This document shows, in pieces, positions 1-43,567 of a stretch of DNA of 43,567 nucleotides (position 1 is the stretch's first letter; the number at the start of each line of letters is the position of its first letter). The notes beneath the pieces are model-generated. The model had not been told where the DNA came from and did no database searches. It saw only the letters and a list, made by a program, of their open reading frames with translations. A program made the translations under genes and the position numbers. Source of the DNA: Escherichia phage IK_ECO1; the sequence record PP975109.1, one strand, 5' to 3'.

Positions 1-77
1 GCTTTTTTTTTTTGTCCCTGTCTTCAGGGTCCTAGGGGTCTTTAATAGAGGAACAAATATGAGAGAATTAGATGCTG
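1..77. repeat. Window-terminal duplication: nt 1-77 recur at 43491-43567 with one mismatch (pos 25 c vs 43515 a); unit length 43,490 bp
   Basis: Direct comparison of the first and last 77 nt; the duplicated segment spans the capsid terminator T-run and the first codons of the gene at 59. Confidence 0.9.
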
Positions 78-3590: not shown

Positions 3591-3605
3591 ACTAAGGGGA
3601 AGTAA

Positions 3606-6290
3606 ATGCCTGTAATTCAACCCAACCGACAGGGTCTAAATATCGGCGGCGTGCAATTGCAGGCCAACGAGATTAACTTACCCTCTACCGTAGGGGATGT
3701 AGTAGTAGACACGTCCAAAGCAAACCGCCTTGCAGCACTCTCTGGCTTCGTCCAGGACTTCGGTATAGGGTTTGATGCAGCAGTAAAAGAAAATGCAGCA
3801 GCAGCCACTGTGCGAGGTGCTATGGATGCCCAGGGTGCAGTAGATGCAATGGCCTCTAAAGATGAGGCAGTACAGAAGCAGAATCTATTTGTACGAGAAG
3901 CCTACCAGGATGGTTATGTATCTGCTGCGGCCTACGATTCTCTAGCTAAGTGGCGTACGGATAGTATTACTCGCGCTAAGAAGGCAGCTGAGGCCGGACT
4001 GACTGATGAGGAATTCCACCAGCAGGAGCAAGAGCATGTTCAAGCTATGTCTGACAAGCTCGGTATGTATCTTCCGGATATGTCCAAACAGTCCGCTACG
4101 GCGGTACTGCAACAGCTCCGTGCAACCAGCTTAGCTAACTACACGGCCTTCCAGAAAGGTCGCGCAGAGTTTGCAGTAGCACAAGCAGACCGTGCGCTGG
4201 ACCGTGGGCTCAGCTCCTCCGTTGATGAGTTCTATCAGCGCCTGGATGCTGGGCAGGGTGCTGCTGCACAGATGTCAATTAAGACAGGACTAGACAGTAT
4301 ACTAGCGGCTGAACACTTGGATAAATCCAAGAAGTTGGACCGAGCCAAGCAGTATCTGGTCAGTGTAGCGCAGCAGACCCAGGACCCTCTAATCATCAAC
4401 CAGTTGCAGGAAATGGCAACTAAAGAGCTTGGTGTTAACTCTGTAGACGTTAATGCTGCCTTGTATCAGGAATTTAAGCGTGCTGGGACTCAGATTGAGA
4501 CTCAGGCTCGCTTTGAAATCTCAGATGCAATTCAGTCTCTGGAGGGGCAGTCCCCAGAAGAGCAGGAGCAGACGATGCAGCGTATCCGCAACCGCGTGAT
4601 TGAGCTATCTGCTACGGATGTACTAAGCCCCGGCACCAGTATGGAATTCTGGAACAAGGCTCAGACTATCAGGGAGAAGACTGCCGATACACAGGCTTTA
4701 CGTAGTGCCCTCACAGGAAACCTTCCTACATCCACCTTAGCTGGTATGTTTAAAGGGGATCTGGATAAGGCCCGGTCACAGGTACTCAAAAACTTCCCAG
4801 ACACTCCAGAGGGGAACTTGCAGCTACTGGCTTATGGTAGCAATAGTAAAGATGCGTGGGCCATCAATGAAGCACACAAGCGCATGTCCTCGGATATGGC
4901 GCGCACCCTCACTACACTGGACCAGTTAGGTGAGGATGGGCAGGTGTCCAAGGAGAATGTCAATAGCATCAACCTGTGGGCCCAAGCATATAGTACCAGT
5001 ACCGACTTAGGTAAGATGGCTCTGCTGTCTGAAGTCCCATCTGAGTGGCAGGGGGTGGTTCAGAAGGCCATTGCACAGAACCCCAATAACGCTAGCAACA
5101 CTATTCTGGACGATCTGCGTCGCCAGGCCCGTAACAAGGCTAACGGGCGCTACAGCAACATCAGTAGCAACCCCACAGACAAAATGGTGGATCCGAGTCA
5201 CACTGCTAATTGGTTCAGCTTCTTCGGCACAGCTGACGCACAGCGCCAGGAAGCGCGCGCCGCTATGGAGGAAGAGTATCGGTACGTATACAACCACAAC
5301 CCAGAGGCGTTAGTTGGTAAGGATCCCGATGATATCAACACGATGCTCAAAGGTAACATCCAAGCCCGTAAGCTGGAGTTAGATATCTCTGGGGCTCCTC
5401 GGCACGTGTACCTGCCAGCTGGGACTTCTATTCAATCCCTAATGGGGGATTATCGAGGAGACCAGGAGCAGTTCAAGTCGTCTCTGCAGCAACAGATTCA
5501 GAACCAGGTCAACGCCTTAATCGACCCAAGCAACCTTGAGCGCGTAGTAGTGCAGGCTGCTACAGCAGGCAACTCAGCACAGAATATGACTGTCACCGTA
5601 TTCGACAAGAAGGGTACCTTTCAGACTATGTCTGTGAATCTACAGGATGTTCAATCTACTGCTCAGGATGCTTACAACAAGGCGCTGGCTGGTGAGATGA
5701 AGATTGGCAGCGAGCAAGTTGGTATCCGCCCAGCTACTTTCTACGATCATGACAACGGCAGAGCTGTAAGTGTTCAGGTCAATGGTCGTAATGGGGCTGG
5801 TGTAGAACCTTCTTTATTTAGTGAGATTCTCGCCAATACCATGCAGTTTGAAGGGTTCCGGGAAGGTAAGGGTAACGGCAGTGTAGGTTTTGGTCTGCAC
5901 AACAACTCCGGTATGCCTGTTCCGAAGAAGGTTACTATCGACGATGGTATCAGCATTCTGAAATCCTCTCTGGAGCAGCAATATATCCCGAACGTGAACA
6001 AGCAACTGCGCGGGCAGGGTCTAAGTGCTTCTGCGGATGCTATGAAGGTCATGGTTGACTTGAACTATCATGGTGGCAACGGGAGTTCTGGCCCTGTAGC
6101 AGAGGCCGTGGCACAGGTACGTAAGGCATCTAAGACCCCTGTAGGGGCTTACCAGTATCCTGTATCGGAGGCCCAAGGTAAGGCTTGGCAAGCACTGCGC
6201 AATACCCCAGCTTACAAGCAGGCACAGCCTAAACGTAAGAAATATCTGGAGCAAGGACTGCGTAACTGGATGTTTGAGGTAACACACTAA
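3606..6290 (+). CDS. Internal virion/core protein (gp15-like), 894 aa
   Basis: Long ORF with RBS aagggga; position in internal virion protein block; followed by hairpin at 6294. Confidence 0.45.
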   Translation: MPVIQPNRQGLNIGGVQLQANEINLPSTVGDVVVDTSKANRLAALSGFVQDFGIGFDAAVKENAAAATVRGAMDAQGAVDAMASKDEAVQKQNLFVREAYQDGYVSAAAYDSLAKWRTDSITRAKKAAEAGLTDEEFHQQEQEHVQAMSDKLGMYLPDMSKQSATAVLQQLRATSLANYTAFQKGRAEFAVAQADRALDRGLSSSVDEFYQRLDAGQGAAAQMSIKTGLDSILAAEHLDKSKKLDRAKQYLVSVAQQTQDPLIINQLQEMATKELGVNSVDVNAALYQEFKRAGTQIETQARFEISDAIQSLEGQSPEEQEQTMQRIRNRVIELSATDVLSPGTSMEFWNKAQTIREKTADTQALRSALTGNLPTSTLAGMFKGDLDKARSQVLKNFPDTPEGNLQLLAYGSNSKDAWAINEAHKRMSSDMARTLTTLDQLGEDGQVSKENVNSINLWAQAYSTSTDLGKMALLSEVPSEWQGVVQKAIAQNPNNASNTILDDLRRQARNKANGRYSNISSNPTDKMVDPSHTANWFSFFGTADAQRQEARAAMEEEYRYVYNHNPEALVGKDPDDINTMLKGNIQARKLELDISGAPRHVYLPAGTSIQSLMGDYRGDQEQFKSSLQQQIQNQVNALIDPSNLERVVVQAATAGNSAQNMTVTVFDKKGTFQTMSVNLQDVQSTAQDAYNKALAGEMKIGSEQVGIRPATFYDHDNGRAVSVQVNGRNGAGVEPSLFSEILANTMQFEGFREGKGNGSVGFGLHNNSGMPVPKKVTIDDGISILKSSLEQQYIPNVNKQLRGQGLSASADAMKVMVDLNYHGGNGSSGPVAEAVAQVRKASKTPVGAYQYPVSEAQGKAWQALRNTPAYKQAQPKRKKYLEQGLRNWMFEVTH

Positions 6291-6339: not shown

Positions 6340-9300
6340 ATGGCTCAGTTTCTGAACCGAGAACCGAATCCACAGGAAAAGGATTCTGCTAAGGGCGCAA
6401 CACTTAAACCTGCGCCTACAAGCGTAGATTGGAATGACGCAGGAGATGATGGGCTGAATGCCCTACAGCGTTCATCTATACTGGCCCAGGCTAAAACCCC
6501 TGCGACGTCAGCAGGGGAGAGCTTTGCTGCTGGGGTTGGTAACAGCATTATAGCTGCAGCCATTAGAAAGGCCTCCTCCCCAACATTCGTCCCAGAGCAG
6601 GGGTTTGATGCTAAGAAACAACTAAGCACCGACTCCCGAGCTAAGCTCTACACCCCTAATCAGGAAGAGATTGATTACTTGCACGGGGCGGTGTCCCTGG
6701 ATGATTATAATTATCGCATTCAGGCTATGCTAGAACAGCGTGACCGTGACCGTCAGATGTCTGATAACACGGTAGCCGGGTTCACCGGTGCACTGGCTGG
6801 TGATGCTCCGTTTATACTGGCTCCGATGTCAGCGGCGGGTATCGCTGGTCGTGCTGGCTTAGCAGTGCGTACTGCTATCCGCGCAGCGGATGTAGGTACA
6901 GCTGTCTATGCACAAGATCAATTGGGACAGTCTGCGGCAGTCACTGCTCTGGTAGCAGGGGTAGCTGGACTAGACCAGCTCTGGGACATGTCTAAGGCTG
7001 CTAAAGTAGCAGCAAAGGCACGCACTGGGCGTGAGCCTATGTTTGACCCGGACGCGCCCACAACTCGTACAGCAAGGGATGCTAATGTTACAGGAGTAGG
7101 AGAAGGGGACACAATACTCACTAAGGTACTGGATGAACCTATCCAAGTTCGCCGGAATAACACTGCTGCTGTTAACATGAAAGCGCAGGACGTAGTCCGT
7201 TTCCTCAAGACCTCTGAACACTTATCTAAAGGTCAGAAGGCTATCCTGGACACCCTGGGTGATGCAGTACAGGATATTGATTTTAAACTGGTGGCTGGTT
7301 CTTCTAACCGTAGCCACTATGGATTTTCACCAGCATCAACCACTGATAGGGGTTTTGTATCTTTACGTGCCCCTAAGAAAGCTAACGGAAGTACCTGGAC
7401 TACTGCTAGGGACGCTCTGCGTGCTATGGATGCGGACACTAGCCGAGTAGCAGTGCACGAGCTGATTCACGCGGCCACCACCAGAGCCATCAAGCAGAAT
7501 CCTGAAATTGCGAGTAAGCTGGAAGAGGTGCGCGCTGCAATAGCATCAGATTCAACTCTTAGTGATAAATTCAAGTATTATGCAAGCGATGTGCACGAGA
7601 TGCTGGCTGGACTGGGAGACAGCCCTGAGTGGGTAGAGTACCTCTCTAGGACTAAATCCCCTACTGGTAAGAGTATGCTTCGCCAGATTGGTGAGTATAT
7701 CATGAATGCGCTTGGGGTCCGTACCAAGGGCTCCGCGCTGGAGGATGTTCTGGACGCGTACGAGGACGCTGTCAAGTGGACCGCAAAGGACTACGCAGAC
7801 CAAGCTCAGGGCTTCCGGAGTGAGTCCTTCCAGGACTTGGCGGATACATCGGTTAAGCATGAGGCCTTGAAAGCTCAGGCTATGATGGACACTGCTAAGC
7901 GTAAGCTCGCCACTATGTTCTCCTTGTATGATAACATCGCAGAAGGTAGTGAGGACCTAGCACGCTTATTAGTATCTGATGCTACTGCTGTAGGAGGTCG
8001 TAAGCCGTCTGTGGTGGACTTCAAGCGTAATCTTACGTTGGAGATGGACGCTAGTGCCAGTGTAGTTGAGGATGCTATACTAGGTGCCCTCAAGGCCAAA
8101 GGTGTAGGTTTCACGGACCGCTTCTTCCATCGTAGCAACTTCCGAGCAGCTCGCGCGGACTTAGAAGACCGCTTAGGCCGTTACCTGGACTCTGCATACA
8201 GTGCTGAGGTTAATGGGCGTCCTGTACCTCTGCCGGACTCCGACTTGGTTCCGCTCGTTGAGGCGTATCGCAACTCTGGTTGGGCTAGTAAGTGGCACGA
8301 CCACATGACCGCTGCCGGTTTAGTGGATGACGGTACTCTGGTTAAATCGGACTACTACTTCCCACGCCAGTATAGCTACGATAAGATGCGCCAAGGTATT
8401 GCAAATGGTCGCTCCCTGGATAATTATCGGGATCTGTTCCGTCAGGCATTACGTGACGTGTATCCATCTATGGAACCTGAGGTCGTTCAACGTGTTGCTA
8501 AGGAGATGGTTGATGGTATCTACAACGGACGCTCCTCGGCCTCTGGTCCTATGTGGAAGCAACTCATCAATGGTATGGGTAATGATGAAGTGGTTATGGC
8601 CATGCGTAATGCTGGCGTAGACGAGAGTGCAATCCAGAGTTTCTTGGCAGGTAATGTCCGAGAATCTGGCGCTACCTCGCCTGCTCGGAACCTGCGTCAA
8701 CGTACCCGCTTCAACATGGATAAAGAGTACATCGTGGATGGTCAGGCTATGCGTATGCAGGACCTGATGGACACTGACGTAGCCAAGGTAATGCACGGTT
8801 ACACCAACCGCATGTCTGGTCGTGTAGGTATGGCCTATGCTGGTGTCTCTGACCTCAAGACTCTAGAGACGATGATTAACGAGTCCAAACACGCCCTAGC
8901 CGATTCGGGTAAGTGGGAGAAGACTGTTAATGATACCATTGACTTTATCCTGGGTGGGGCCCCGGCCGATGCCGGGCAGATGCCGGACCTGTTGCGTGCA
9001 GCGGGGAATATGGCTAACGCTACCATGCTCAAGAACTCTGGATTGTACCAGCTTACTGACACCGCTCTGGCTCTGAAAGAGTTCGGTATGTCCCGAGTAC
9101 TCCGCAGTATGCGTGAGCAGCCCTGGTTTAAAGAGGGTGCCGTAGCTATTCGTAATCCGGACATGGCTAGTCGCCTGGATACAATCCTACGTGGCAGTAT
9201 CCAGAAGGAGATGCGCTTCCGCTGGCTGAATACCTACGCAGACGATAACTTGGACCTGACCCGTCAGGCTTCCTGGTTTAACGTCACGCAGAACGTTGGG

Positions 9301-10038
9301 CAGGCCGCTAGGCATGTTAACGGTATGAGCATGGTGCACAGACTGCAGGTTAACTTGAACTCCGGGATTGTTGCTGATGAACTCAAGCAGATGTTCAAAG
9401 GTGATGCAGAGGCATTCAAACGCCTGGAGCGCTTCGGGCTTACCCGTGATGTTGCAGACCGTGCTATTGCTGCCAATAAGGCTAACCCTGGCGCTATGTT
9501 CCAGCCGGACCTGCAAATGCAAATTGAGGTGGTAGGTACCAGAATGATGGACTACCTGGTGCAGCAAGTACGTACCGGTGAGACCTCACACTTCGCACAG
9601 TTTAACCCTATTGGTAAAGTAATCGTCGGCTACCAGAGCTTTGCCCTGGCTGCCACCAACAAGATTCTCCGCCGAGAGTTGAACGACGCTGGGTGGATTG
9701 GGGTTGCGCACATTATGGCGTACCAGTTCCCGTTGATGCTGCTCGCTACTATGGCGAAGCATGGTATGGATGGCAAAGAGGTAGACACCCAGAAGCTTAT
9801 TGCTGAGTCAGTTATGGGTATGAGTGCCATCGGTGGTATCTCGCTTCTACAGGACATCTTCACTGGGGATTCCCCACGTCACTCGTTGGCGTCTATGGGT
9901 TACGTCACTGGGCTGCTGGGTGCCGTGCAAGCCCTGGCTACTGGGGATATGGATATCCAGACCTTCACTAAGCAGGTCCCGTTAATCCAGGAATTCGCAC
10001 CTACGCGAGCTATCATCAATAACTTCGGAGACGATTAA
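6340..10038 (+). CDS. Internal virion protein D / ejection protein (gp16-like), 1232 aa; contains an HELIH (HExxH) motif
   Basis: Largest ORF, RBS aggaga; position before tail fiber as in T7 gp16; HExxH at approx nt 7456-7470. Confidence 0.5.
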   Translation: MAQFLNREPNPQEKDSAKGATLKPAPTSVDWNDAGDDGLNALQRSSILAQAKTPATSAGESFAAGVGNSIIAAAIRKASSPTFVPEQGFDAKKQLSTDSRAKLYTPNQEEIDYLHGAVSLDDYNYRIQAMLEQRDRDRQMSDNTVAGFTGALAGDAPFILAPMSAAGIAGRAGLAVRTAIRAADVGTAVYAQDQLGQSAAVTALVAGVAGLDQLWDMSKAAKVAAKARTGREPMFDPDAPTTRTARDANVTGVGEGDTILTKVLDEPIQVRRNNTAAVNMKAQDVVRFLKTSEHLSKGQKAILDTLGDAVQDIDFKLVAGSSNRSHYGFSPASTTDRGFVSLRAPKKANGSTWTTARDALRAMDADTSRVAVHELIHAATTRAIKQNPEIASKLEEVRAAIASDSTLSDKFKYYASDVHEMLAGLGDSPEWVEYLSRTKSPTGKSMLRQIGEYIMNALGVRTKGSALEDVLDAYEDAVKWTAKDYADQAQGFRSESFQDLADTSVKHEALKAQAMMDTAKRKLATMFSLYDNIAEGSEDLARLLVSDATAVGGRKPSVVDFKRNLTLEMDASASVVEDAILGALKAKGVGFTDRFFHRSNFRAARADLEDRLGRYLDSAYSAEVNGRPVPLPDSDLVPLVEAYRNSGWASKWHDHMTAAGLVDDGTLVKSDYYFPRQYSYDKMRQGIANGRSLDNYRDLFRQALRDVYPSMEPEVVQRVAKEMVDGIYNGRSSASGPMWKQLINGMGNDEVVMAMRNAGVDESAIQSFLAGNVRESGATSPARNLRQRTRFNMDKEYIVDGQAMRMQDLMDTDVAKVMHGYTNRMSGRVGMAYAGVSDLKTLETMINESKHALADSGKWEKTVNDTIDFILGGAPADAGQMPDLLRAAGNMANATMLKNSGLYQLTDTALALKEFGMSRVLRSMREQPWFKEGAVAIRNPDMASRLDTILRGSIQKEMRFRWLNTYADDNLDLTRQASWFNVTQNVGQAARHVNGMSMVHRLQVNLNSGIVADELKQMFKGDAEAFKRLERFGLTRDVADRAIAANKANPGAMFQPDLQMQIEVVGTRMMDYLVQQVRTGETSHFAQFNPIGKVIVGYQSFALAATNKILRRELNDAGWIGVAHIMAYQFPLMLLATMAKHGMDGKEVDTQKLIAESVMGMSAIGGISLLQDIFTGDSPRHSLASMGYVTGLLGAVQALATGDMDIQTFTKQVPLIQEFAPTRAIINNFGDD
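7085..7102 (+). promoter_or_regulatory. Copy of the repeated motif atgttacaggagtaggag, inside the gp16-like gene; candidate phage RNAP promoter
   Basis: Exact 17-18 nt identity with copies at 18310 and 38994. Confidence 0.35.
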
Positions 10039-15519: not shown

Positions 15520-17643
15520 ATGGCTCTCGTACGTAATATTACTGTCCCGAGTTATTACTCTGGACTTAACGTTGTTGACTACGGGGTAGTAGGCGACGGT
15601 ATCTCGGATGATACAGTAGCCTATACTCGAACTGTTGAAGCTGCTAATGCACTGCAACTGCCTGTATATGTACCTCCAGGTATGCGTGTCCGTATCACCG
15701 GTAGTTCTAACATTACACATAAGTACGGTTTTAACTTTAACGGCAGTACCTTGGATATTCAAGAGTATGCTGGTAAGTTCCTGTTCCAGCGCCAGGTAGC
15801 CCCTGTTCAATACTCTGCTGGTTCGCCACTTCTTACTGCTTTAGCAAGTACTACTTTAAGCGGAACTTATAACAGTGTTATGTCAGGCCGTACAGAACTG
15901 GATAACTGCTACGTAAATATAGTTACTAACCAGCCGTACTATACCTACCGTGGGGCTGTTACTACTCGTACTGAACGTTTAGCTGTAATCCGTAACGGTA
16001 TGCTTGAGGGCACTCTTAAATATCCGCTTGCAGGTTCTAGAATCACAGGCATCACTGCATACCCTCTTCCAGATAAGGAAGTAGTGTATGAGAACGTGGT
16101 GGTGGACGTAGGTGCTAATCAGCTGCAAGGTAACCCGTTCCTGATTGAGGCCGATAAGGTACGTTTAGAGAACTGGTCTTTTAAGCAATCTAACGTACTA
16201 TTTACCTCTGTAAATCCAGTATACGTAGTCATGCGTAACTGCTTCCATATGCGCGTACGCAACTTCCAGATGCAGTGGACTACTCGTACCGCTGCTAACA
16301 ACTTTACGTACGGCGTGGCTGCTGAGTACTGTTCAGATATCGAGTTTGACTCAATGAAAGGTGTAGGCGACGGTTGGGGCATGACCGGTTTCAACGAGAA
16401 TCGTCGCTGTACCTTCAGGAACTGTCAGCTTAGCCGAATAGATACGCACCAGCCTTTCATTGAATGGTTGCGTGTGCTGGACTGTGATACCGGTCAGTGG
16501 GGTATTAGTCTAACTGCCTTAGGTGATGTTATTGTTAAAGGTGGTAGCATTACCCTGACTAACGATAGCGTTTATACAGATAAGGTAGGCTTTATACTAT
16601 TGCGTAATGAGTGCGGCGGGGTACTGGATGGTCAGTTAGTAGTTGATGATGTTACCCTCAAGAACTACACCAGTACTACAACTCAAGCCTTAGTATATCA
16701 CCGTGGGGACTTAGCAGATGCCCCACCTTCAGGTTCCCCTGTTAACTTCCAATGCAGTAGCAGTATGCTCATCAAGAACCTGCGTTCAGATGGCCGCATC
16801 GTAGAGCTTGCCCCTACCATCAACGGTGCTTCAGGTATTAAGTACCCGGCCAGTATCGTAGTTCAGGACTGTATTGAAGGTATCTACAGCTTTGCTACTA
16901 ATATAAGTACCTTTACCCCGAACAGTACGATAACTACTCCAGTCGATAACGCCTTAGGTAGTATCTCGAATCTGAAGGTACAGTTACGTAGCTGCAATAT
17001 CCGCAGTAACGTCTCCCTGGTAGATACGTCCATCCCACAGAAATTTGTAGTGGATATGCTGCTTGATGGTGTATTCGGAAACGGTGCATTCAATCCGGGA
17101 CTACAGGTTAAGTTCGGAGGTACTGTCAGCTGTGTTAACTCTGTACTGGAAGGCTTGGACTTCTTCTCAGGGGCTGCACTGGACCGGTACTTGAAGGTGT
17201 CAGTAGTAGGTGGAGGTATTCGCCACACTGGACGTTTCCGTACTGTACCTGTGAACGGGGCTAATACCTTAGTCTCGGTTATTATCCAGGGAGCTGCATT
17301 GCAGAGCACTACGGCTGCTGCATTACGTTATTATATGGTGGCGCATCTGCAAGGTTGTACCTACAGCGTAGCCGGGTCTGCCAGTACCCCTACATTAACT
17401 GTCACCCCAGATGGTAGTACTAGTTACGATACTGGGGTAGTTGGTATTAACAGTAAGAACCTAATGCAACTTACAGCCAGTGTAAGTGGGGTACTTAGAA
17501 GGGTACCGTTCTTCCTGCCTGCTAGTGGTGGTAGTACTTACGTGCAGTTAGATAACGGTGTTTACGCTAACATAACCTACAGCGGAAGTACTGTAACTGT
17601 TTCTACCACAGCAGGTTTAGGCGGGATTACGTTGGTAGGCTGA
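15520..17643 (+). CDS. Tailspike / polysaccharide depolymerase, right-handed beta-helix (pectate-lyase-like), 707 aa
   Basis: N-terminal motif NVVDYGVVGDGISDDT typical of pectate lyase 3 / beta-helix tailspikes; last structural-type gene before the non-coding region; lacks T7 fiber anchor domain. Confidence 0.6.
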   Translation: MALVRNITVPSYYSGLNVVDYGVVGDGISDDTVAYTRTVEAANALQLPVYVPPGMRVRITGSSNITHKYGFNFNGSTLDIQEYAGKFLFQRQVAPVQYSAGSPLLTALASTTLSGTYNSVMSGRTELDNCYVNIVTNQPYYTYRGAVTTRTERLAVIRNGMLEGTLKYPLAGSRITGITAYPLPDKEVVYENVVVDVGANQLQGNPFLIEADKVRLENWSFKQSNVLFTSVNPVYVVMRNCFHMRVRNFQMQWTTRTAANNFTYGVAAEYCSDIEFDSMKGVGDGWGMTGFNENRRCTFRNCQLSRIDTHQPFIEWLRVLDCDTGQWGISLTALGDVIVKGGSITLTNDSVYTDKVGFILLRNECGGVLDGQLVVDDVTLKNYTSTTTQALVYHRGDLADAPPSGSPVNFQCSSSMLIKNLRSDGRIVELAPTINGASGIKYPASIVVQDCIEGIYSFATNISTFTPNSTITTPVDNALGSISNLKVQLRSCNIRSNVSLVDTSIPQKFVVDMLLDGVFGNGAFNPGLQVKFGGTVSCVNSVLEGLDFFSGAALDRYLKVSVVGGGIRHTGRFRTVPVNGANTLVSVIIQGAALQSTTAAALRYYMVAHLQGCTYSVAGSASTPTLTVTPDGSTSYDTGVVGINSKNLMQLTASVSGVLRRVPFFLPASGGSTYVQLDNGVYANITYSGSTVTVSTTAGLGGITLVG

Positions 17644-18280: not shown

Positions 18281-18309
18281 TACTTTCATTCGAAAGCTAA
18301 TAAGAAATG

Positions 18310-19647: not shown

Positions 19648-19676
19648 TTACAGCCTATAGCATCCTGTGGGGTGCT
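19642..19676 (+). promoter_or_regulatory. Conserved stem-loop element, copy 1 (agcctatagcatcctgtggggtgctatgtgaagta)
   Basis: One of three related intergenic elements; stem tagcatcc / gggtgcta. Confidence 0.4.
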
Positions 19677-19725
19677 ATGTGAAGTAATTCGTTAGGTAAA
19701 CAATCAACAATCGATGAGGTGTATC

Positions 19726-20443: not shown

Positions 20444-20478
20444 AGCCTATAGCGTCCTACGGGGCGCTATGTGAATAC
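20444..20478 (+). promoter_or_regulatory. Conserved stem-loop element, copy 2 (agcctatagcgtcctacggggcgctatgtgaatac)
   Basis: Stem tagcgtcc / gggcgcta; differs from copy 1 by paired compensatory changes. Confidence 0.4.
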
Positions 20479-21529: not shown

Positions 21530-23251
21530 ATGCAAACGACTCGCGAGATGCAAGAAACTAGCAAAGCAGTTGCAGACATCAATGTGCCTGAATACGAGAA
21601 TTGGACCATCAAATTTCCAGAAGGGGTCAACGCTCTTCCACTGAAGGAACAGATGTACTCTTCCGGGGATTACTGGTGCCAACTTCCCTACCTATCAACT
21701 CAAGGCCATGCGCGCGTGCAAAGTAACAAAACCCGTGCGCTTTTGTATGGCTTTTATATGTTGTCAAAGGTGCTGCCGGGGTATGTTGTAGCACTCGGCA
21801 ACTTCACAGCTGCAGGAGAGGACTTGGGTGGGTGTGTTGGGCCGCTGGGCACGATTGATCTTAGTGACACTCTCCTGTATAAGCTCTTTGACTGTGCAGG
21901 TACCTACGACCAAGCATTCAGTTTATCTAGCAGAACCTTCTATGATGGCCCTGACGTAGTTACAGAACGCGTAGTAGAGGCGGTCCAATACTTTACCGGA
22001 TACAAGGTGCACAAGCAGGCTATCGAGCTGTTCGAAGAGATTATGCTAGCACCTACTTACTCCCTTCGGGCCAAATACACTCGCGGCTTGTACGGTGAGC
22101 GTGATGGTAATTACTGGGCAGCAACCTTGCTTATGCAGTTGCACGGATTTGTAGTATCTAGATTTGCAATCCCACTAGGTTTCGGCTTCCGCAACGGTGA
22201 GCCTGTAGTAATGCTGGGGCAGCCGCGACTGCACAAAGATTATGCTGCAATTACAGAGTATCGCTGTGTAGAGATGCGCGTAGGTAAGTGGCTCGCTAAC
22301 TATTACGGCAGTGGTGTAGACTTCCGGGAATGTATTGAAGACCTCAAAGCTATGAACGTGGAGCCTACTACATATCTTTGTAAGACCGAGCGGGAGTGGT
22401 ACTACGCATACGAGAACGGCCCTCGTAGCTGCATGACTGGATACGACTTCGAGGCTAGTCCGGTGCGTGTATATGCCACGACTAGTCACGGCTTGCCGGA
22501 CAATAATCTGCGCCTGTTCATCCAGTATACTGGTGAACTTTTTGGCGACGACTTTAAAGTGCATGCCCGTGCTATCGTTAACATTGAAACCAATGAATAT
22601 GTCCGTGCATACGGGGATGCTGCAGATGCCATCCTGCGTGCTAATGGGTATGCGAACGATACAGACTGCTTAGATGGTGCAATGCTGGCGCGTATCCCAC
22701 ACCCAGAGCATGATGGTGCCGTGCTTATGCCGTACTTGGATGGGAGCCAAGACGGGGTGGATGCCGAAGGGGATAGTGCATTCGTCATCTGTTATTGCTA
22801 TGACTACGAAGCACAAGACGCTGACGGGTACATTTGGATTGATGATGGTCGCAGTGCTTGTGTAGAGTGCGGGGAGCGATTCGACGAAGAGGACATGTTC
22901 GAGACTTCTGGTGGAGCTTATGTGTGCCCGCACTGTATTGGTGATACTTACGTACAGGTAGTAGGGCGCTCGGTGGTATATCCGTCATGGGATTGTTCAT
23001 GGTCCGACTACCACGATTGTTGGGTATATGACTTTGACGTAGCAGATTGTGCTGTAGAGGGTACAGTGCACGACCGAGAGCCGATGCAGTGTGCGCAAGG
23101 GTACGATGTTCTTAGCATCCACACCGAAGCACACCCAGTGCACGGCATAATCCTCACGGAGTACGCTGCGTCAGTGCTGGATGAGCCTTACCTCGGCAAC
23201 GAGGAAGCTAAAGAAGACAAAGAAGCTAACGCGGAACAGGAGGCAGCTTAA
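21530..23251 (+). CDS. Large early protein of unknown function, about 573 aa, Cys-rich zinc-ribbon-like C-terminal region and acidic tail
   Basis: ATG 21530 with RBS ggaga 9 nt upstream; track ORF 21236-23251 has an earlier in-frame start overlapping the previous gene; CxxC…CxxC (CVECGERF…CPHCIG) near C-terminus. Confidence 0.5.
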   Translation: MQTTREMQETSKAVADINVPEYENWTIKFPEGVNALPLKEQMYSSGDYWCQLPYLSTQGHARVQSNKTRALLYGFYMLSKVLPGYVVALGNFTAAGEDLGGCVGPLGTIDLSDTLLYKLFDCAGTYDQAFSLSSRTFYDGPDVVTERVVEAVQYFTGYKVHKQAIELFEEIMLAPTYSLRAKYTRGLYGERDGNYWAATLLMQLHGFVVSRFAIPLGFGFRNGEPVVMLGQPRLHKDYAAITEYRCVEMRVGKWLANYYGSGVDFRECIEDLKAMNVEPTTYLCKTEREWYYAYENGPRSCMTGYDFEASPVRVYATTSHGLPDNNLRLFIQYTGELFGDDFKVHARAIVNIETNEYVRAYGDAADAILRANGYANDTDCLDGAMLARIPHPEHDGAVLMPYLDGSQDGVDAEGDSAFVICYCYDYEAQDADGYIWIDDGRSACVECGERFDEEDMFETSGGAYVCPHCIGDTYVQVVGRSVVYPSWDCSWSDYHDCWVYDFDVADCAVEGTVHDREPMQCAQGYDVLSIHTEAHPVHGIILTEYAASVLDEPYLGNEEAKEDKEANAEQEAA

Positions 23252-30957: not shown

Positions 30958-31080
30958 TGATAGGTGGACCCTTGGGTGGTGTAGGGGGTTAGGGTAACAT
31001 GAGAATTAGCTGGGGTCAAGCAGATAATTAAATAAAATTATTTGTTGACTCTGGCTTGATTTTGTGATTCACAGAGAATT

Positions 31081-31099
31081 AATGTGATACGAGTAGGAA
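31081..31099 (+). promoter_or_regulatory. Variant of the repeated motif (aatgtgatacgagtaggaa), 20 nt upstream of the HNH gene at 31119; candidate phage RNAP promoter
   Basis: 16 of 19 positions match aatgttacaggagtaggaa; lies in an AT-rich intergenic segment. Confidence 0.3.
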
Positions 31100-31118: not shown

Positions 31119-31553
31119 ATGTCGATGTGCATTGACCATGGGTATACCAAATGCCTTAATAAGAATGGGTACCGCCGGGCATGGTATAAGCCAACTAAGC
31201 GATTAGAGCTTCTGCACCGAGTGGTGTACGCTGAGCATAATGGGATAGATATAGGGGAGATGGCCGGGCTGTCTGTTAGACACACCTGCGATAACCCTAG
31301 GTGCATTAATCCAGAGCACTTAGTGCTGGGGACGCACTTAGATAATATGAACGACCGTGCAGAACGTGGGAGGAACCCGGATGTACGGGGAGAGCGGAAC
31401 CCAAAAGCACTGCTATCTTGGGAGGCCGTGCGGGATATTAGGGCCAACTATGTCCCGTACAAGAAAGGTGTGCGGCAACACTTTGCTAATAAGTATGGTG
31501 TGGGTGTACATGTAATTAGTGACGTAATAAGTAACAGGAGCTGGAATGCCTAA
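31119..31553 (+). CDS. HNH endonuclease, 144 aa (paralog of 27946 gene)
   Basis: SVRHTCDNPRCINPEHLVLGTHLDNMNDR, near-identical core to the 27946 protein; AT-rich codon usage. Confidence 0.7.
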   Translation: MSMCIDHGYTKCLNKNGYRRAWYKPTKRLELLHRVVYAEHNGIDIGEMAGLSVRHTCDNPRCINPEHLVLGTHLDNMNDRAERGRNPDVRGERNPKALLSWEAVRDIRANYVPYKKGVRQHFANKYGVGVHVISDVISNRSWNA

Positions 31554-33641: not shown

Positions 33642-33896
33642 ATGAATATCATCAAGATTCTCACCAAACTCCTGAGTGCAGCTTATACAGCAGAAGCTAA
33701 ACGTGCTGACGCTAAGGCACAACTGAATGAGCAGTTGTCGATTAAGTTTGCAGATGATGCGGTGCGCCTGGCGGCACAATCCGAGGCACGAGTAGAAGAC
33801 TCCAAACGCAGCAAAGCTGAAGCGGCTAAGTGCGCTGAACAGGCTGATAAACTGCGCGCTAAGCGTGATGAAGTAGTAAACTTTCTGGGGGTATGA
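33642..33896 (+). CDS. Hypothetical protein, 84 aa, predicted helical and charged
   Basis: RBS-like gaggaag upstream. Confidence 0.4.
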   Translation: MNIIKILTKLLSAAYTAEAKRADAKAQLNEQLSIKFADDAVRLAAQSEARVEDSKRSKAEAAKCAEQADKLRAKRDEVVNFLGV

Positions 33897-36518: not shown

Positions 36519-38987
36519 ATGATTAGCGCCCTGAATACGGTTGTAGTACCAGAGGAAGCACTGGTGGAACGCCAGTTGGAGCTTGAAGAGACCTACAAGA
36601 TTCGCGGCATTGAACGTGCTCGCAAATTGATTACCGATGCTCTACAAAACGGCGGGATTATGAACCTGCCTATGACTCAGCGCATGCTAACCTCTGCGTA
36701 CGACGTGGCCTCTGCAGCCATTGAGGAAATGCGTAATGTCAAAGCCCCGGGTATCGGTGGAAAGTACCGCCGATTCCTACGCTTAGTCCCCTTGGATGTC
36801 CTAACTACTCTGAGCCTGTGCACAATGTTTGAGGCGTTCAGTGTTGCCCCTGGTGAGTCCGCCAGTCGCCGCCAGACAGCTCAGGCAGTGATGTCCGCTC
36901 TGGGTAGGAATGTACAGTCAGAGCTGCTGGCCCTACAACTACGTAATGTTGCTCCAGCGTATATGGACCGGGTATATGAATACCTCACTGAGCGCCGTAC
37001 TAAGTCACCTACGCACATTCTGCGTACGCTCCGCGCCAGTGCTGAGAACGTGCACTATGGGCATGAGCCTTGGACCAACGCTCATAATATTTCTGTGGGA
37101 CGTCTGCTGTGTTCCGCAGTGTTTGAGACGGGGCTGTTCCAGTGGAAGACTGGTAGCGGGAACTTGAGTATGCTCTATCCCGCAGATAATGTTATGGAAG
37201 CATTTCAGCAGTTAGTGGAATCTGCTGACACTGTAACTATGAAGCCTCCGATGCTGGTACCGCCGGTGCAACATACTACACTGTGGGATGGTGGATACCT
37301 CACCCCAATCGATAACCGTGGGACGTACCACAACTCACACATTGACCGCGCCAGACTGCGTGAAGTAGCGGAAGCATTTAAGTCTGCGGACGGTATCAAG
37401 AAGGCACTTAATAAGGCGCAGGAAACCCCTTATCGCATTAATAAGCGAATACTGGAACTGGTACAAGAAGCACGGGCCTTAGGTATTGGTGTAGGTATGC
37501 CGCGCTCAGTGCCAGAGCCGAAACCTGAGTGGTACTTAGATGGTGTACCAAAAGAGAATTACACCGAGGAGGAACTCGACCGCTTCGGAGAGTGGAAGAC
37601 GCGCATGTCCTTATGGTACAGCGCCGACCGTAAACGTGTGTCGCAACTACGTAGTCTATTGACCACGCTAGAGATGGCAGAGGAATTCAAAGATGAGAAA
37701 GCCCTATACTTCCCAACCTGTGTGGATTGGCGGTACCGGCTGTACTTCAAGTCCTCACTGCACCCCCAAGGTTCTGATTTGCAGAAGGCACTTCTTGAAT
37801 TCGGACGAGGTAAACCTCTGGGAGAGAGAGGGTTATTCTGGCTTAAAGTGCACGTCGCTACCTGTTTTGGTTATGACAAAACCCTATTCGAAGACCGTGC
37901 AGCTTGGGTTGATGCAAACTTTGCAGAGATTGAGCAGCTCGCGGATTCTCCTTTTGATTGCCCTGCTTTTACCTCCGCCGACAGCCCTTGGTGCTTCCTG
38001 GCAGCCGCTATCGACTTGGTTAATGCTGTACGTTCTGGATGCCCAGAAGAGTATATTAGCCGAATCCCAGTTGCTATGGATGCTACAAACTCAGGTGGTC
38101 AGCACCTCTCAGCGCTCCTGAGAGACCCTGTAGGCGGGCGTCTGACTAACCTGTACTGGGAGGGTAACGACAAGAAAGCGGACCTGTATATGGACGTGAA
38201 GCGCCGTACGGACGAGAAGGTGATACTGGACCTGGACAAAGAGGATTTCGTTATCCAGAGCACGTACTGGAGAGAGAACGAAATCACTCGAAGCATGACC
38301 AAGCGTCCTAGCATGACCTACTTCTACAGCGCCACGGTGCGCAGCTGCAGCGACTACATCTTTGCAGGGGCCTGTGAAGAGGGGTATGAAGGAACAGACA
38401 CGCACAGTCTCTGGAACCTTTCCTGCTACCTTGCCCCTAGGATGCGTAGCGCTATCGAGGAAGCTAACCCGGCAGCAGCAGCAGCTATGGGGTATCTGCA
38501 GAACCTCGCTAGGCGTGTACCTGCTAGTCAGCACCTGCAGTGGAAGACCCCGCTAGGGGGGCTGGTGATGAACCGGTACTCTCAACGAGAGGAGGTGCGT
38601 GTACGTATTGACTGCATGAACTTGTCTGCCGTGCTGGTGCACAACCGTGACTTTAAGACCTGTAATAAGCGCAAGGCCGCCTCTGGTATTGCCCCGAACT
38701 TTGTACATAGCCTGGATAGCACACACCTCATGATGGTGCTCTGTGCTGCAGAAGGTATAGATATTATACCTATTCACGATTCGATGGCTACTCACGCATC
38801 TGACGTTGATGCTCTGCACCGCCATATCCGTGAACAGTTTGTGAAGCTGTACGAGGAGCATGATCTTCTGGGGGATATTACCCGAGCAGCTGCTGAAGCG
38901 GGGGCAGATCTTACAGACCTGGAGATGCCTGCAATAGGTACTTTGGACATCCGACAAGTACTGGAATCACCCTTCTTCTTCTCATAA
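36519..38987 (+). CDS. DNA-directed RNA polymerase, single-subunit T7-type, 822 aa
   Basis: Catalytic-region motifs AMDATNSGGQHLSALL (T7 DGSCSGIQHFSAML equivalent) and IPIHDSMATHASD (T7 HDSFGT equivalent); size. Confidence 0.9.
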   Translation: MISALNTVVVPEEALVERQLELEETYKIRGIERARKLITDALQNGGIMNLPMTQRMLTSAYDVASAAIEEMRNVKAPGIGGKYRRFLRLVPLDVLTTLSLCTMFEAFSVAPGESASRRQTAQAVMSALGRNVQSELLALQLRNVAPAYMDRVYEYLTERRTKSPTHILRTLRASAENVHYGHEPWTNAHNISVGRLLCSAVFETGLFQWKTGSGNLSMLYPADNVMEAFQQLVESADTVTMKPPMLVPPVQHTTLWDGGYLTPIDNRGTYHNSHIDRARLREVAEAFKSADGIKKALNKAQETPYRINKRILELVQEARALGIGVGMPRSVPEPKPEWYLDGVPKENYTEEELDRFGEWKTRMSLWYSADRKRVSQLRSLLTTLEMAEEFKDEKALYFPTCVDWRYRLYFKSSLHPQGSDLQKALLEFGRGKPLGERGLFWLKVHVATCFGYDKTLFEDRAAWVDANFAEIEQLADSPFDCPAFTSADSPWCFLAAAIDLVNAVRSGCPEEYISRIPVAMDATNSGGQHLSALLRDPVGGRLTNLYWEGNDKKADLYMDVKRRTDEKVILDLDKEDFVIQSTYWRENEITRSMTKRPSMTYFYSATVRSCSDYIFAGACEEGYEGTDTHSLWNLSCYLAPRMRSAIEEANPAAAAAMGYLQNLARRVPASQHLQWKTPLGGLVMNRYSQREEVRVRIDCMNLSAVLVHNRDFKTCNKRKAASGIAPNFVHSLDSTHLMMVLCAAEGIDIIPIHDSMATHASDVDALHRHIREQFVKLYEEHDLLGDITRAAAEAGADLTDLEMPAIGTLDIRQVLESPFFFS

Positions 38988-38993
38988 AATTTA

Positions 38994-39010
38994 ATGTTAC
39001 AGGAGTAGGA
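38994..39010 (+). promoter_or_regulatory. Copy of repeated motif atgttacaggagtagga directly downstream of the RNAP gene, abutting the ATG of the next gene; candidate phage RNAP promoter
   Basis: Exact identity with copies at 7085 and 18310; position analogous to T7 promoters just downstream of gene 1. Confidence 0.4.
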
Positions 39011-39454
39011 ATGAAGTTAAAACACACTAGTAAAACACCCAATACTCACTCACTAAAAGTTCTGCATAAGCACGATGATATTAGAGAAGCAGTGAGGGCT
39101 CTGCACGAACTTGGTCACGGCATTAGTCGGGGCCTTACCACAGAGCAACACTATTGGAGAGTACTAAAAAGTATACTAGGTAAACAGTATATACTAGGAG
39201 TCTATGACTCCCGGGGCGACTTAGTAGGTGCTGTCAGTTACTACCCGGAAGCTGTAGAGGACTGCCATTACGTAGAGCCTGTGTTGTACACAGACTTCTT
39301 CGTATTGAAACCAGGAAACAGTGAGGCAATGCTTGTAGTTATGAAGGGTCTGCAAGCAATCGCTAAGTGTATGCGAGCTGGGCGCATCGCCATTAGTCGC
39401 AATACATCGGATAATACTTACAAAACAACTTACCATTTAGTGAGGTCAGCATGA
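39011..39454 (+). CDS. Hypothetical protein, 147 aa, possibly GNAT-like acetyltransferase fold; lower GC than neighbours
   Basis: ORF with AT-rich codon usage; weak resemblance to GNAT core (ILGVYDSRGDLVGAVSYY … FFVLKPGNSEAMLVVMKGL); speculative. Confidence 0.3.
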   Translation: MKLKHTSKTPNTHSLKVLHKHDDIREAVRALHELGHGISRGLTTEQHYWRVLKSILGKQYILGVYDSRGDLVGAVSYYPEAVEDCHYVEPVLYTDFFVLKPGNSEAMLVVMKGLQAIAKCMRAGRIAISRNTSDNTYKTTYHLVRSA

Positions 39455-39714
39455 GCGGTGGATTAGGTAAACTGTTAGGTAAGGCCACGGATATGCTTGG
39501 CCTTACTGATAACGAAGGATTAGAACAACAGCAGCGTATGGCTGAGCAGCAGGCTGAAGCAGCAAAACAGCAGGCAGCCTTAGAGGCGAACAGTGCAGCT
39601 GACAATATTACTGAGGTAAACCCCTCCGGCGCGGCCTCTGCATCTGCAGATGCAATTACGTCTGAGCAGAAGAAACGGCGACAGGCAGGGCAGAGCAACC
39701 CCCTGGGCCTGTAA
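39451..39714 (+). CDS. Hypothetical protein, 87 aa, Gln/Ala-rich
   Basis: ATGA overlap with upstream gene; precedes portal. Confidence 0.4.
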   Translation: MSGGLGKLLGKATDMLGLTDNEGLEQQQRMAEQQAEAAKQQAALEANSAADNITEVNPSGAASASADAITSEQKKRRQAGQSNPLGL

Positions 39715-39723
39715 GGAGGAAGC

Positions 39724-41319
39724 TTGGACTATAAAAAGACATTAGCGGAACTGTTCCTGGGGGACCAGGATGCTGGCGTACTGGATGCGTCAGAGAAGTT
39801 TGCTGAGTGGACGCTACCTACAATCTTTACCCGAGAGCTCTATACTGATGGGCGGCGTATGCAGCTTAGTCGAGACTATCAGAGTACAGGTGCTCAGCTG
39901 GTCAATACAGCAGCGACTAAAATTGTAGGTGCATTATTCCCGCAAGGTACTAGCTTCTTCCGGTTCTCTAAGAGTGCAGCCCTTGACAACTTTATTAGTA
40001 GTCTGGGAAGTTCTAGCACTGCGGAATCCCGTTTATCCGAGGTAGAGAACACCGCCTCTCAGAAGGTGTTTGAGAAGGATGGGTATGCTGCTAAGCTTCA
40101 AGCTGTGAAGTTGCTGCTTATCACCGGGAACGCATTGGAGTATATCGATGAAAGAACCGGGAAATCCATTATCTACTCGGTCCGTAACTTTACCGTTCGA
40201 AGGGATGGTAGCGGGAACGTGCTGCGACTCATTATCAAAGAGCGCGCCAGCATCCAGGACCTCCCAGAAGACATTCAAAAAGCACACTACAATGGTCGAG
40301 ACCCATACAGCGACATTGATATCTACACTGCCGCTTGTCGTAAGATTAAGCACCTTCCAAATGGGGAAGAAGCAGTAAGCTATGAGGTGTATCAAGAAGT
40401 TGATGGCCGTCGCCTAGGCGAGAGCAGCACATACCCTGAGCTGGAACTTCCGTATAACGTATTGGTGTGGAACCTGGTTAACGGTGAGCACTACGGACGC
40501 GGTCTAGTGGAAGACTATGCGGGTGACTTTGCGCGACTGTCTGTGCTGACAGAGGCGTTGACCAACTACGAGATTGAGGCTTCCCGCCTTATCCCTATGG
40601 TTGATGCTAGTTCTGGACTGGATGTGGATGAGTTCTCTCAAGCCGAGACCGGTGAGGCAGTACAGGTTGGTGGTGGTGGTAGTAATGGTAACACCAAGTC
40701 CCCTGTAACAGCTTACGAGGGTGGTGCAGCTCAAAAGATTCAGTGGATTGCTAGCGACATTCAGATGCTTGAGCAGAAACTGGCTCGTGCGTTTATGTAC
40801 ACCGGCAATGCTCGACAGGGTGAGCGTGTAACTGCTTATGAGATTCGTCAGAATGCTAAAGAGGCAGAGTACGCTATGGGTGGTGGATTCAGCATCCTCA
40901 GTGACTCCTGGCTGCGTAAGCTCGCGTACCTGTATACTATCGTGGCATATCCTAAGTTCAAGGTGTATCTCACCGAGGGTGTAGTGGATATCAACGTGAT
41001 GGTAGGTACTGCAGCACTAGCTAAAGCAGCAGCAGCAGATAAACTGCTAGAAGCTACCCAGGCTATGCAGCTGGCTATTCCTGTTCTCAAACAGCTTACC
41101 CCACGCTTCAATGAGGATGCTTGTGTAGACTGGTATCTGGATGCGTACGGTATCGTAAGTGGACCGTTCATGCTCACAGAGGAGCAGTTGCAAGAGAAGC
41201 AGCAGGTTCAAGAGAACGCAGCGGCGGCATCAGCAGCTCAAGCGCAATCGCAGGTACAAGATCTCCAGGCAGCGGATCCTACCGTAGCGGGACAACAACT
41301 AGGCCTGTTACCGGGCTAA
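39724..41319 (+). CDS. Portal (head-tail connector) protein, 531 aa, TTG start
   Basis: RBS aaggagga 5 nt upstream of TTG; size matches T7 gp8; position before scaffold and capsid. Confidence 0.55.
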   Translation: MDYKKTLAELFLGDQDAGVLDASEKFAEWTLPTIFTRELYTDGRRMQLSRDYQSTGAQLVNTAATKIVGALFPQGTSFFRFSKSAALDNFISSLGSSSTAESRLSEVENTASQKVFEKDGYAAKLQAVKLLLITGNALEYIDERTGKSIIYSVRNFTVRRDGSGNVLRLIIKERASIQDLPEDIQKAHYNGRDPYSDIDIYTAACRKIKHLPNGEEAVSYEVYQEVDGRRLGESSTYPELELPYNVLVWNLVNGEHYGRGLVEDYAGDFARLSVLTEALTNYEIEASRLIPMVDASSGLDVDEFSQAETGEAVQVGGGGSNGNTKSPVTAYEGGAAQKIQWIASDIQMLEQKLARAFMYTGNARQGERVTAYEIRQNAKEAEYAMGGGFSILSDSWLRKLAYLYTIVAYPKFKVYLTEGVVDINVMVGTAALAKAAAADKLLEATQAMQLAIPVLKQLTPRFNEDACVDWYLDAYGIVSGPFMLTEEQLQEKQQVQENAAAASAAQAQSQVQDLQAADPTVAGQQLGLLPG

Positions 41320-43463: not shown

Positions 43464-43502
43464 CGCCCCTGGTGCCTTCGGGTGCCAGGGGCTTTTTTTT
43501 TT
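43464..43502 (+). terminator. Rho-independent terminator: 12-bp stem gcccctggtgcc / ggtgccaggggc, UUCG loop, T11 tail
   Basis: Seen in sequence; lies after the capsid gene cluster, analogous to T7 T-phi; the T-run is also the start of the window. Confidence 0.8.
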
Positions 43503-43567
43503 TGTCCCTGTCTTAAGGGTCCTAGGGGTCTTTAATAGAGGAACAAATATGAGAGAATTAGATGCTG

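Follow-up and report, generated by a model that had tools for sequence, protein, structure and literature searches.

A conserved gene with a predicted GNAT fold, apparently a distant relative of LUZ19 Rac, lies between the RNA polymerase and portal genes of the KP34-like phage IK_ECO1

Introduction

Directly after the gene for its single-subunit RNA polymerase (RNAP), and ahead of the portal gene, Escherichia phage IK_ECO1 carries an AT-rich open reading frame (ORF) of 147 amino acids (aa). It starts with ATG and occupies positions 39011–39454 on the + strand of sequence record PP975109.1, whose 43,567 nucleotides (nt) are referred to here as the window. The locus raises the question of whether this ORF is a moron, that is, foreign AT-rich cargo recently inserted between RNAP and portal with its own copy of a promoter motif, or a resident gene of the phage group, and of what its product does. 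A preliminary description had proposed a possible moron with features of the GNAT acetyltransferases. We have found that the ORF is a core gene of KP34-like Klebsiella and E. coli phages and no variable accessory gene, that its product is predicted to have a GNAT-type fold, and that this protein appears to be a distant relative of Rac from phage LUZ19.

Phages of the KP34-like group (Drulisvirus) rank among the most widely used candidates for therapy against Klebsiella, and their RNAP is under development for RNA manufacture. Part of the picture was already known: several GenBank records annotate the gene as 'acetyltransferase', and an orthologue has been reported to be toxic. The link to Rac and the 3-nt leader described below are modest, incremental additions, and nothing found for the ORF overturns current understanding.

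Conservation and composition of the ORF

The window is the complete, circularly permuted genome (43.6 kb) of a KP34-like podovirus, with every long ORF on the + strand. In the region of the locus it is 98.3% identical to Klebsiella phage KPV811 and 94–96% identical to several E. coli and Shigella phages that belong, or are related, to Drulisvirus. By tblastn, 262 phage records contain a match to the ORF protein, and in 244 the amino acid identity is at least 60%; the corresponding search with the RNAP gave 248 records at an identity of at least 80%. Six relatives from two genera have the genes in the same order (RNAP, ORF, small virion protein, portal), namely KP34, fHe-Kpn01, Minorna and KMI5 together with the Koutsourovirus phages phiKDA1 and KKP 3828. 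The protein belongs to PHROG 5167 (E = 8.5e-55), which is listed as 'unknown function', and is 82% identical to KP34p38 and 84% identical to fHe-Kpn01 Gp38. These Drulisvirus 'hypothetical proteins' are its direct orthologues, encoded at the same position and behind the same promoter–ATG junction; fHe-Kpn01 differs from the window in having an HNH gene upstream and an altered 5' half of the promoter.

The preliminary description had placed the ORF at a site where related phages carry variable genes. Such genes are indeed present between RNAP and portal in related phages, but the variable slot is the short stretch that separates the promoter from the RNAP stop codon, and the inserted genes do not take the place of the ORF. 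This gap is empty in the window, where the stop codon lies 4 nt (38988–38991) 5' of the promoter, and it is empty in KP34. In Minorna (1998–2336 of the fetched locus) it holds a 112-aa gene of the SLOG/YspA family (PF10686, E = 2e-14), and in fHe-Kpn01 and KMI5 (3594–4070 and 157–777 of the respective loci) a gene for an HNH endonuclease.

The low GC content to which the preliminary description had drawn attention is real, and the check by GC windows and codon usage that it suggested does reveal a deviation. The ORF has a GC content of 44.4% (0.444) against 51.2% (0.512) for the genome, a value matched by only 1.6% of all genomic 444-nt windows (the 1.6th percentile). It ranks third lowest among the 52 candidate ORFs and lowest among those of at least 100 aa. 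The deficit is uniform along the gene, successive thirds having values of 0.442, 0.449 and 0.442. Amino acid composition accounts for only part of it, since the GC content expected from the ORF amino acids and the codon usage of the genome, 0.494, is still well above that observed. Synonymous codon use is also atypical: in 5000 simulations of the same protein with the codon usage of the genome, the log-likelihood of the ORF had z = −3.45 and its GC content at third codon positions (GC3) z = −3.04, values reached about once in 1000 simulations.

This composition is an old and maintained trait of the gene and no trace of a recent import, since every orthologue examined has the same deficit, of 6 to 10 points. 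Against the fetched locus of each phage, the GC contents of the orthologues are 47.6% and 54.2% in KP34, 47.6% and 54.0% in fHe-Kpn01, 45.1% and 51.1% in Minorna, 46.2% and 52.3% in KMI5, 41.3% and 51.0% in phiKDA1, and 44.1% and 51.1% in KKP 3828 (orthologue and locus, respectively). The persistent AT-richness and the atypical codons may serve to hold the expression of a toxic protein low.

The ORF is a real gene under purifying selection, with a ratio of nonsynonymous to synonymous substitution rates (dN/dS) of 0.15–0.24, which is looser than in the neighbouring genes. Separately, we observed that, when this phage is compared with KP34 or fHe-Kpn01, synonymous divergence (dS) in the ORF (0.57–0.59) amounts to about a third of that in the portal gene (1.8–2.1). 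Extra constraint on the RNA of the ORF could produce such a difference, but mosaicism, with the two regions differing in ancestry, would account for it just as well.

Predicted fold

An AlphaFold2 model of the protein, calculated from an alignment of 14 family members, has a pLDDT of 90.2 and a pTM of 0.82, with residues 1–9 disordered. Its predicted topology, b1-a1-a2-b2-b3-b4-a3-b5-b6, contains the core fold of the GNATs. When the model was compared with the PDB by Foldseek, all of the top 50 matches were GNATs (best E = 4.5e-6), with N-terminal acetyltransferases among the best of them. A combined profile of the ORF family and the Rac family, searched against PDB sequences, likewise placed GNATs on top with little else (best E = 8e-4). 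A GNAT-type fold is thus supported for the model, in line with the weak resemblance noted in the preliminary description, and HHpred analysis of the orthologue fHe-Kpn01 Gp38 has given an N-acetyltransferase match at 97.7% (PMC7291057).

Searches with the ORF family alone found less. Phmmer and a family-only profile returned only spurious TPR, SecY and capsid matches among PDB sequences, an NCBIfam scan of the ORF gave no relevant match, and Pfam found no families in the distant metagenomic homologues. A profile search of 1.84 billion cluster representatives yielded ten proteins at E up to 0.001: seven relatives of 130–154 aa, one fragment of 102 aa and two repeat proteins judged to be spurious. 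At the level of HMMER searches this is a narrow family without relatives in cellular organisms.

Relation to Rac

Rac (LUZ19 gp28) is a predicted GNAT whose gene lies 3' of that for the phage RNAP and overlaps the first structural gene; the protein arrests host functions by triggering loss of the C-terminal domain of the RNAP alpha subunit (Ceyssens et al. 2020, PMC7552054). Like the ORF protein it has about 150 residues, and its gene lies 3' of a phage RNAP gene and of phage-RNAP promoters, with a 3' end that overlaps the gene for a gp29-like small virion protein, followed by the portal gene. The order in LUZ19 is RNAP, gp27, gp28 (Rac), gp29 (virion protein) and gp30 (portal). Rac inhibits growth when expressed alone, and so does the fHe-Kpn01 orthologue of the ORF protein. 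There are differences in arrangement: in LUZ19, gp27 and a spacer of roughly 170 nt precede Rac, whereas the present ORF begins 3 nt after the predicted transcription start (+1), and the hosts of the two phages differ.

The two proteins are only about 16–20% identical, and a BLASTP comparison of the ORF protein with Rac was not significant. Comparison of profiles by hhalign relates the ORF family to Rac alone with a probability of 94% (E = 1.4e-7) and to an eight-member alignment of the Rac family, assembled from tblastn matches in annotated phage records, with 97.6% (E = 3e-12) over 113 columns. When both families are aligned together, three residues of the ORF protein (G73, H86 and Y137) show almost no variation in either family. 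A fourth, D84, hardly varies within the ORF family and is paired by hhalign with D76, an invariant residue of the Rac family. A C-terminal hairpin of the form S-x-R-x-S-D-x-x-Y is common to the two. These alignments support the view that the ORF protein is a distant relative of Rac; in the literature searched, no paper connecting the Drulisvirus gene with Rac was found.

Rac relatives are also encoded in the T7-like Pseudomonas phages Henninger, phTUNSv and Kallioja, directly before the genes for the small virion protein and the portal. Given this placement, the conserved linkage of these genes is with the head of the structural module rather than with the RNAP gene.

The promoter and the 5' end of the ORF

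Two exact copies of the motif TAATGTTACAGGAGTAGGA are present in the window, at 7083 and 38992. A copy at 18308 begins TGATG..., and another, at 31080, deviates by 3 mismatches. At 38992 the motif is followed without a gap by the ATG at 39011, so that the gene starts directly 3' of a promoter-like repeated motif, as had been described. Lu et al. (PMC6834552) used in vitro transcription and rapid amplification of cDNA 5' ends (5'-RACE) to define the strong promoter of the KP34 RNAP as T(A/G)ATGTTACAGGAGTA, which has three copies in the KP34 genome, one of them just 3' of the RNAP gene. The first 16 nt of the window motif (TAATGTTACAGGAGTA, 38992–39007, + strand) have no differences from the KP34 strong promoter S1, and the window likewise holds three exact or near-exact copies. 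On this sequence match, the repeated motif is the validated strong promoter of the KP34 phage RNAP, the main late promoter.

The KP34 promoter at 22197–22212 gives transcripts that begin at 22213 by 5'-RACE (PMC6834552), 3 nt before the ATG of gene 38 at 22216. Because the sequence of promoter, GGA and ATG in the window is identical to that of KP34, we infer that transcription starts at G39008 and that the complete leader is the 3-nt GGA at 39008–39010 (+ strand). Such a transcript, GGA-AUG, would be near-leaderless rather than leaderless in the strict sense, in which the AUG stands at the extreme 5' end. The literature searched contained no paper commenting on a 3-nt leader here and no in vivo transcriptome of a KP34-like phage.

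A Shine–Dalgarno-like AGGAG at 39001–39005 (+ strand) lies 5 nt 5' of the ATG, an ideal spacing, yet it is within the promoter and 5' of the predicted +1, so only read-through RNA would have this site. The GGAG is kept in fHe-Kpn01 and KMI5 although the 5' half of the promoter is altered there. One source of RNAs that include the AGGAG would be the counterpart of the KP34 weak promoter W, which is active in vitro (PMC6834552). This counterpart (ACTTTGGACATCCGACAAGT, 38940–38959, + strand) is in the 3' end of the RNAP gene and was the single match found, with 1 mismatch to KP34 W and 0 matches expected by chance. No terminator above chance was found between the RNAP gene and the ORF, nor a private one for the ORF, and sigma-70 promoters in the region are at chance level only.

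The first 26 nt of the ORF (39011–39036, + strand), which comprise the initially transcribed and translation-initiation region, form the gene's longest run without nucleotide variation among five phages, one of which shares only 61% protein identity. Just one of nine third-codon positions is variable in this stretch, compared with 88 of 139 in the remainder of the ORF. In RNA begun at the promoter, the 30 nt at the 5' end are predicted to be unpaired; no stable structure is predicted there (z = +1.0), and an Rfam search for an RNA element gave no match.

Nucleotides placed 5' of the AUG lower leaderless translation in E. coli. Translation of the ORF may for this reason depend on which transcript carries it: a transcript that continues into the ORF from the RNAP gene, or that begins at the weak promoter, would have a normal ribosome-binding site, and one initiated at the strong promoter would begin GGA-AUG, its leader being 3 nt long and free of such a site. 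More speculatively, the overlap of promoter and ribosome-binding site could act as a temporal switch, by which the toxic protein would be translated efficiently from read-through RNAs, and poorly or not at all from the abundant late RNAs starting at 39008, in which it is the first cistron; we regard this as a tentative idea that is more likely wrong than right. It is equally doubtful, though conceivable, that the read-through RNAs of such a switch belong to a middle phase and come from the host RNAP or from the weak promoter. The proposal that the invariant, unstructured first 26 nt and the AT-rich, atypical codons are parts of the same dosage control is likewise one that we would put forward only with reserve.

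Several further observations concern these promoters. In fHe-Kpn01 and KMI5 (about 4072–4093 and 782–800 of the fetched loci, respectively), both of which have the HNH insertion, the 16-mer at the promoter is TGAAGTTACCGGAGTA. It differs from the KP34 promoter at 3 positions, and the 8 kb examined contain no canonical copy. The altered form may be a weakened promoter, or a variant that fits the other subgroup of RNAP specificity loops (Eriksson et al. 2015). The copy at 7083–7101 is within a 1232-aa ORF (6340–10038), an internal virion protein by size and position, and corresponds to the second KP34 copy at 33721–33736 (Lu et al., PMC6834552). The degenerate copy at 31080–31098 (TAATGTGATACGAGTAGGA, 3 mismatches in the 16-mer) is a candidate only; it is found 20 nt 5' of the ATG of a 144-aa ORF (31119–31553), in a stretch of low GC content (30.7–31.3 kb).

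The 9-mer TACTCACTA has only two exact copies in the genome (7115–7123 and 18362–18370), each 17–39 nt 3' of the start site of a strong promoter, and downstream of the third strong promoter TACTCACTCACTA is found within the ORF (39043–39055). The 9-mer is reminiscent of the T7 promoter core ACTCACTA; it is absent from the corresponding place in KP34, Minorna and fHe-Kpn01, and may be lineage-specific or due to chance. A 32-nt repeat, AGCCTATAGC(A/G)TCCT..GGGG(T/C)GCTATGTGAA, at 19652–19683 and 20444–20475 is the sequence that Eriksson et al. 2015 called a 'putative phage promoter'. The KP34 RNAP did not transcribe in vitro from a DNA fragment with this repeat (Lu et al. 2019), and Eriksson et al. 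suggested that it might mark single-strand nicks.

Function and alternative explanations

The most direct evidence on function comes from the orthologue fHe-Kpn01 Gp38 (146 aa), which was toxic to E. coli on arabinose induction in a screen of proteins of unknown function by Spruit et al. (PMC7291057). It was among the proteins that remained for that screen once virion-associated ones had been removed (PMC7291057). In the fHe-Kpn01 annotation Gp38 has no flag for detection in virions by mass spectrometry, and such flags are present for the RNAP, gp39, portal, scaffold and capsid proteins. We consider it probable that the ORF is the KP34-group (Slopekvirinae) version of a Rac-like 'mini-GNAT' gene, a conserved, non-structural core gene whose product is directed at the host. 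Because of the toxicity of the orthologue, the missing virion flag and the precedent of Rac, we lean, by analogy, towards a non-structural GNAT-fold effector made around the switch in transcription as the reading best supported by the evidence. Many Autographiviridae would, on this proposal, carry a Rac-like mini-GNAT gene directly before the genes for the small virion protein and the portal. Its product would be a GNAT-fold domain of roughly 134 residues without helix alpha4 that most likely hits a host component, arresting host functions around the change from host RNAP to phage RNAP. The target would presumably be a host protein and the activity the transfer of an acyl group.

A number of observations weigh against this reading. 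Helix alpha4, which normally contacts coenzyme A (CoA), is absent from the model, in which b5 (125–133) passes through a hairpin into b6 (136–143). The model of a 97%-identical homologue of Rac also has a topology without alpha4, but the alignment behind it was dominated by the ORF's own family, which possibly biased the topology. The pyrophosphate-binding loop of motif A does not have the Q/R-x-x-G-x-G/A pattern; it reads K100-P-G-N-S-E-A106, with S104 in place of the arginine, and in alignments it is two residues shorter than in Rac, canonical GNATs and thialysine acetyltransferase. Pfam has no match for the ORF at E up to 10, and PF00583, which is matched by six of the eight members of the Rac family, is matched by none in the ORF family. 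The pocket residues Q, Y, V and R, mutation of which inactivates Rac (PMC7552054), are not kept and align with F97, V98, L99 and S104. The toxicity was that of an over-expressed orthologue in E. coli, which is neither the present phage nor an infection, and the start site at 39008 is transferred from in vitro transcripts of KP34 and not from in vivo transcripts of this phage. Moreover, cleavage of alpha is a phenotype restricted to Phikmvvirus, and even among Pseudomonas phages it is not general: the homologue that LKA1 encodes at the equivalent site fails to produce it (PMC7552054). Because alpha cleavage is genus-specific in this way, the specific target of Rac is not transferable to the ORF protein.

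Several of these features would be expected of a catalytically dead binder, in which the GNAT fold was kept, the use of acyl-CoA lost and a host protein inhibited stoichiometrically: motif A is degenerate and shortened, alpha4 is missing, the Rac pocket is not conserved and there is no Pfam GNAT match such as most of the Rac family has. We nevertheless think a loss of catalysis rather improbable, since H86 and Y137, at positions that fit the general base and acid of a GNAT (a role assigned here from position), are nearly invariant in both families, as is D84 in the ORF family at the place of Rac-family D76, and the loop before alpha3 retains the small residues G102 and A106. GNATs bind pyrophosphate via backbone amides, and the sequence of the loop is in consequence a weak criterion. 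Growth arrest on sole expression and a small GNAT fold are also shared with TacT, AtaT and ItaT, the GNAT-fold toxins of toxin–antitoxin systems. Those toxins have a canonical acetyl-CoA site; the ORF has no antitoxin partner, and its structural matches show no specific preference for them. A role on the phage particle itself, as a virion-assembly or infectivity helper like T7 gene 7 ('host range') that might modify or chaperone the small ejected virion protein, is an alternative we judge unlikely, if less so than a dead enzyme. The linkage of the gene to those for the portal and the small virion protein is tight and widespread, its stop codon overlaps the start codon of the gene that follows, and N-terminal acetyltransferases figure among the best structural matches of its product. 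Fold matches in BFVD are named 'host specificity protein A' or 'host range protein' (ICP3, CR8, P694 and Ahp1; E = 2.7e-7 to 2.3e-4, TM 0.65–0.76), and the former is the name for gene 7 in the annotation of T7-like phages. The T7 gene 7 protein is small, has no Pfam match and is encoded before a small virion protein and the portal (the order being gene 7, gene 7.3 for the small virion protein, gene 7.7 and gene 8 for the portal); unlike the ORF, gene 7 is not next to the RNAP gene. By sequence, however, the link to gp7 is tentative at most: hhalign against a ten-member gp7 alignment gives 12.6% (E = 0.0023, 103 colinear columns) for the ORF family and 5.7% for the Rac family. The orthologue is toxic to uninfected E. 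coli, a property not required of a pure assembly factor, and the characterised relative, Rac, acts on the host.

The proposal from which we started, that of a moron, we find very hard to sustain. In its favour are a GC content 6.8 points under that of the genome, the atypical codons, and the genes inserted near the site in fHe-Kpn01, KMI5 and Minorna, all three of which lie upstream of the promoter. Of the marks of a moron (variable presence, its own promoter and terminator, and a deviating composition) the ORF has the last alone. It is present in essentially all close relatives, in 244 records against 248 with a close RNAP, and at the same position in two genera; the GC deficit recurs in all orthologues examined and the gene is under purifying selection. 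Its promoter is the main late promoter, common to the structural genes and not private, and no terminator above chance was found for it. In LUZ19 and in T7-like Pseudomonas phages related genes likewise precede those for the small virion protein and the portal, and the profile search of cluster representatives led to no cellular family. The preliminary description had named a composition close to the genome mean, together with conserved presence and a structural role, as evidence against a moron; the presence is conserved, but the composition does deviate and a structural role is not indicated.

If the ORF does encode a host-shutoff effector of the Rac type, this would assign a function that can be tested to a 'hypothetical protein' encoded by more than 240 sequenced phages, account for the published toxicity of fHe-Kpn01 Gp38 and extend the Rac family from Pseudomonas to enterobacterial phages. 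Should the tentative link to gp7 be real, a single ancient GNAT-fold family would head the structural module across the Autographiviridae, and a role in assembly or infectivity would then have to be weighed seriously as a rival. For users of KP34-promoter expression and for engineers of the locus, the overlap between promoter and ribosome-binding site is in itself relevant.

Gene neighbourhood and further observations

The RNAP gene that adjoins the ORF upstream (36519–38987, + strand, 822 aa) was identified from the list of ORFs, from the annotation of KPV811 and other relatives, and by tblastn, with 99.9% identity to the KPV811 RNAP. Downstream, the small virion protein gene (39451–39714, + strand, 87 aa) begins within an ATGA overlap, its ATG sharing bases with the TGA of the ORF. 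Its product falls in PHROG 3112, 'virion structural protein' (E = 1.5e-24), and is like KP34 gp39 and LUZ19 gp29; KP34p39 is itself annotated as similar to LUZ19 gp29, and the orthologue fHe-Kpn01 gp39 is annotated as verified in virions by liquid chromatography–tandem mass spectrometry. The portal (head–tail connector) gene follows at 39724–41319 (+ strand) with a TTG start, assigned through PHROG 449 (E = 5e-159) and the annotations in relatives.

The first and last 77 nt of the window (1–77 and 43491–43567) are identical but for one mismatch (C/A at position 25). The length of this overlap and its end-to-end placement suggest the k-mer overlap of an assembler on a circularised contig rather than a true terminal repeat. 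The start of the window looks like the poly-T tail of an apparent conserved terminator 3' of the capsid gene. Elsewhere, no ORF of the genome has a larger GC3 deficit than the 707-aa ORF at 15520–17643 (z = −4.85; GC 46.8%). By its size and position it may encode a receptor-binding protein or depolymerase, and if so is likely to have been horizontally exchanged.

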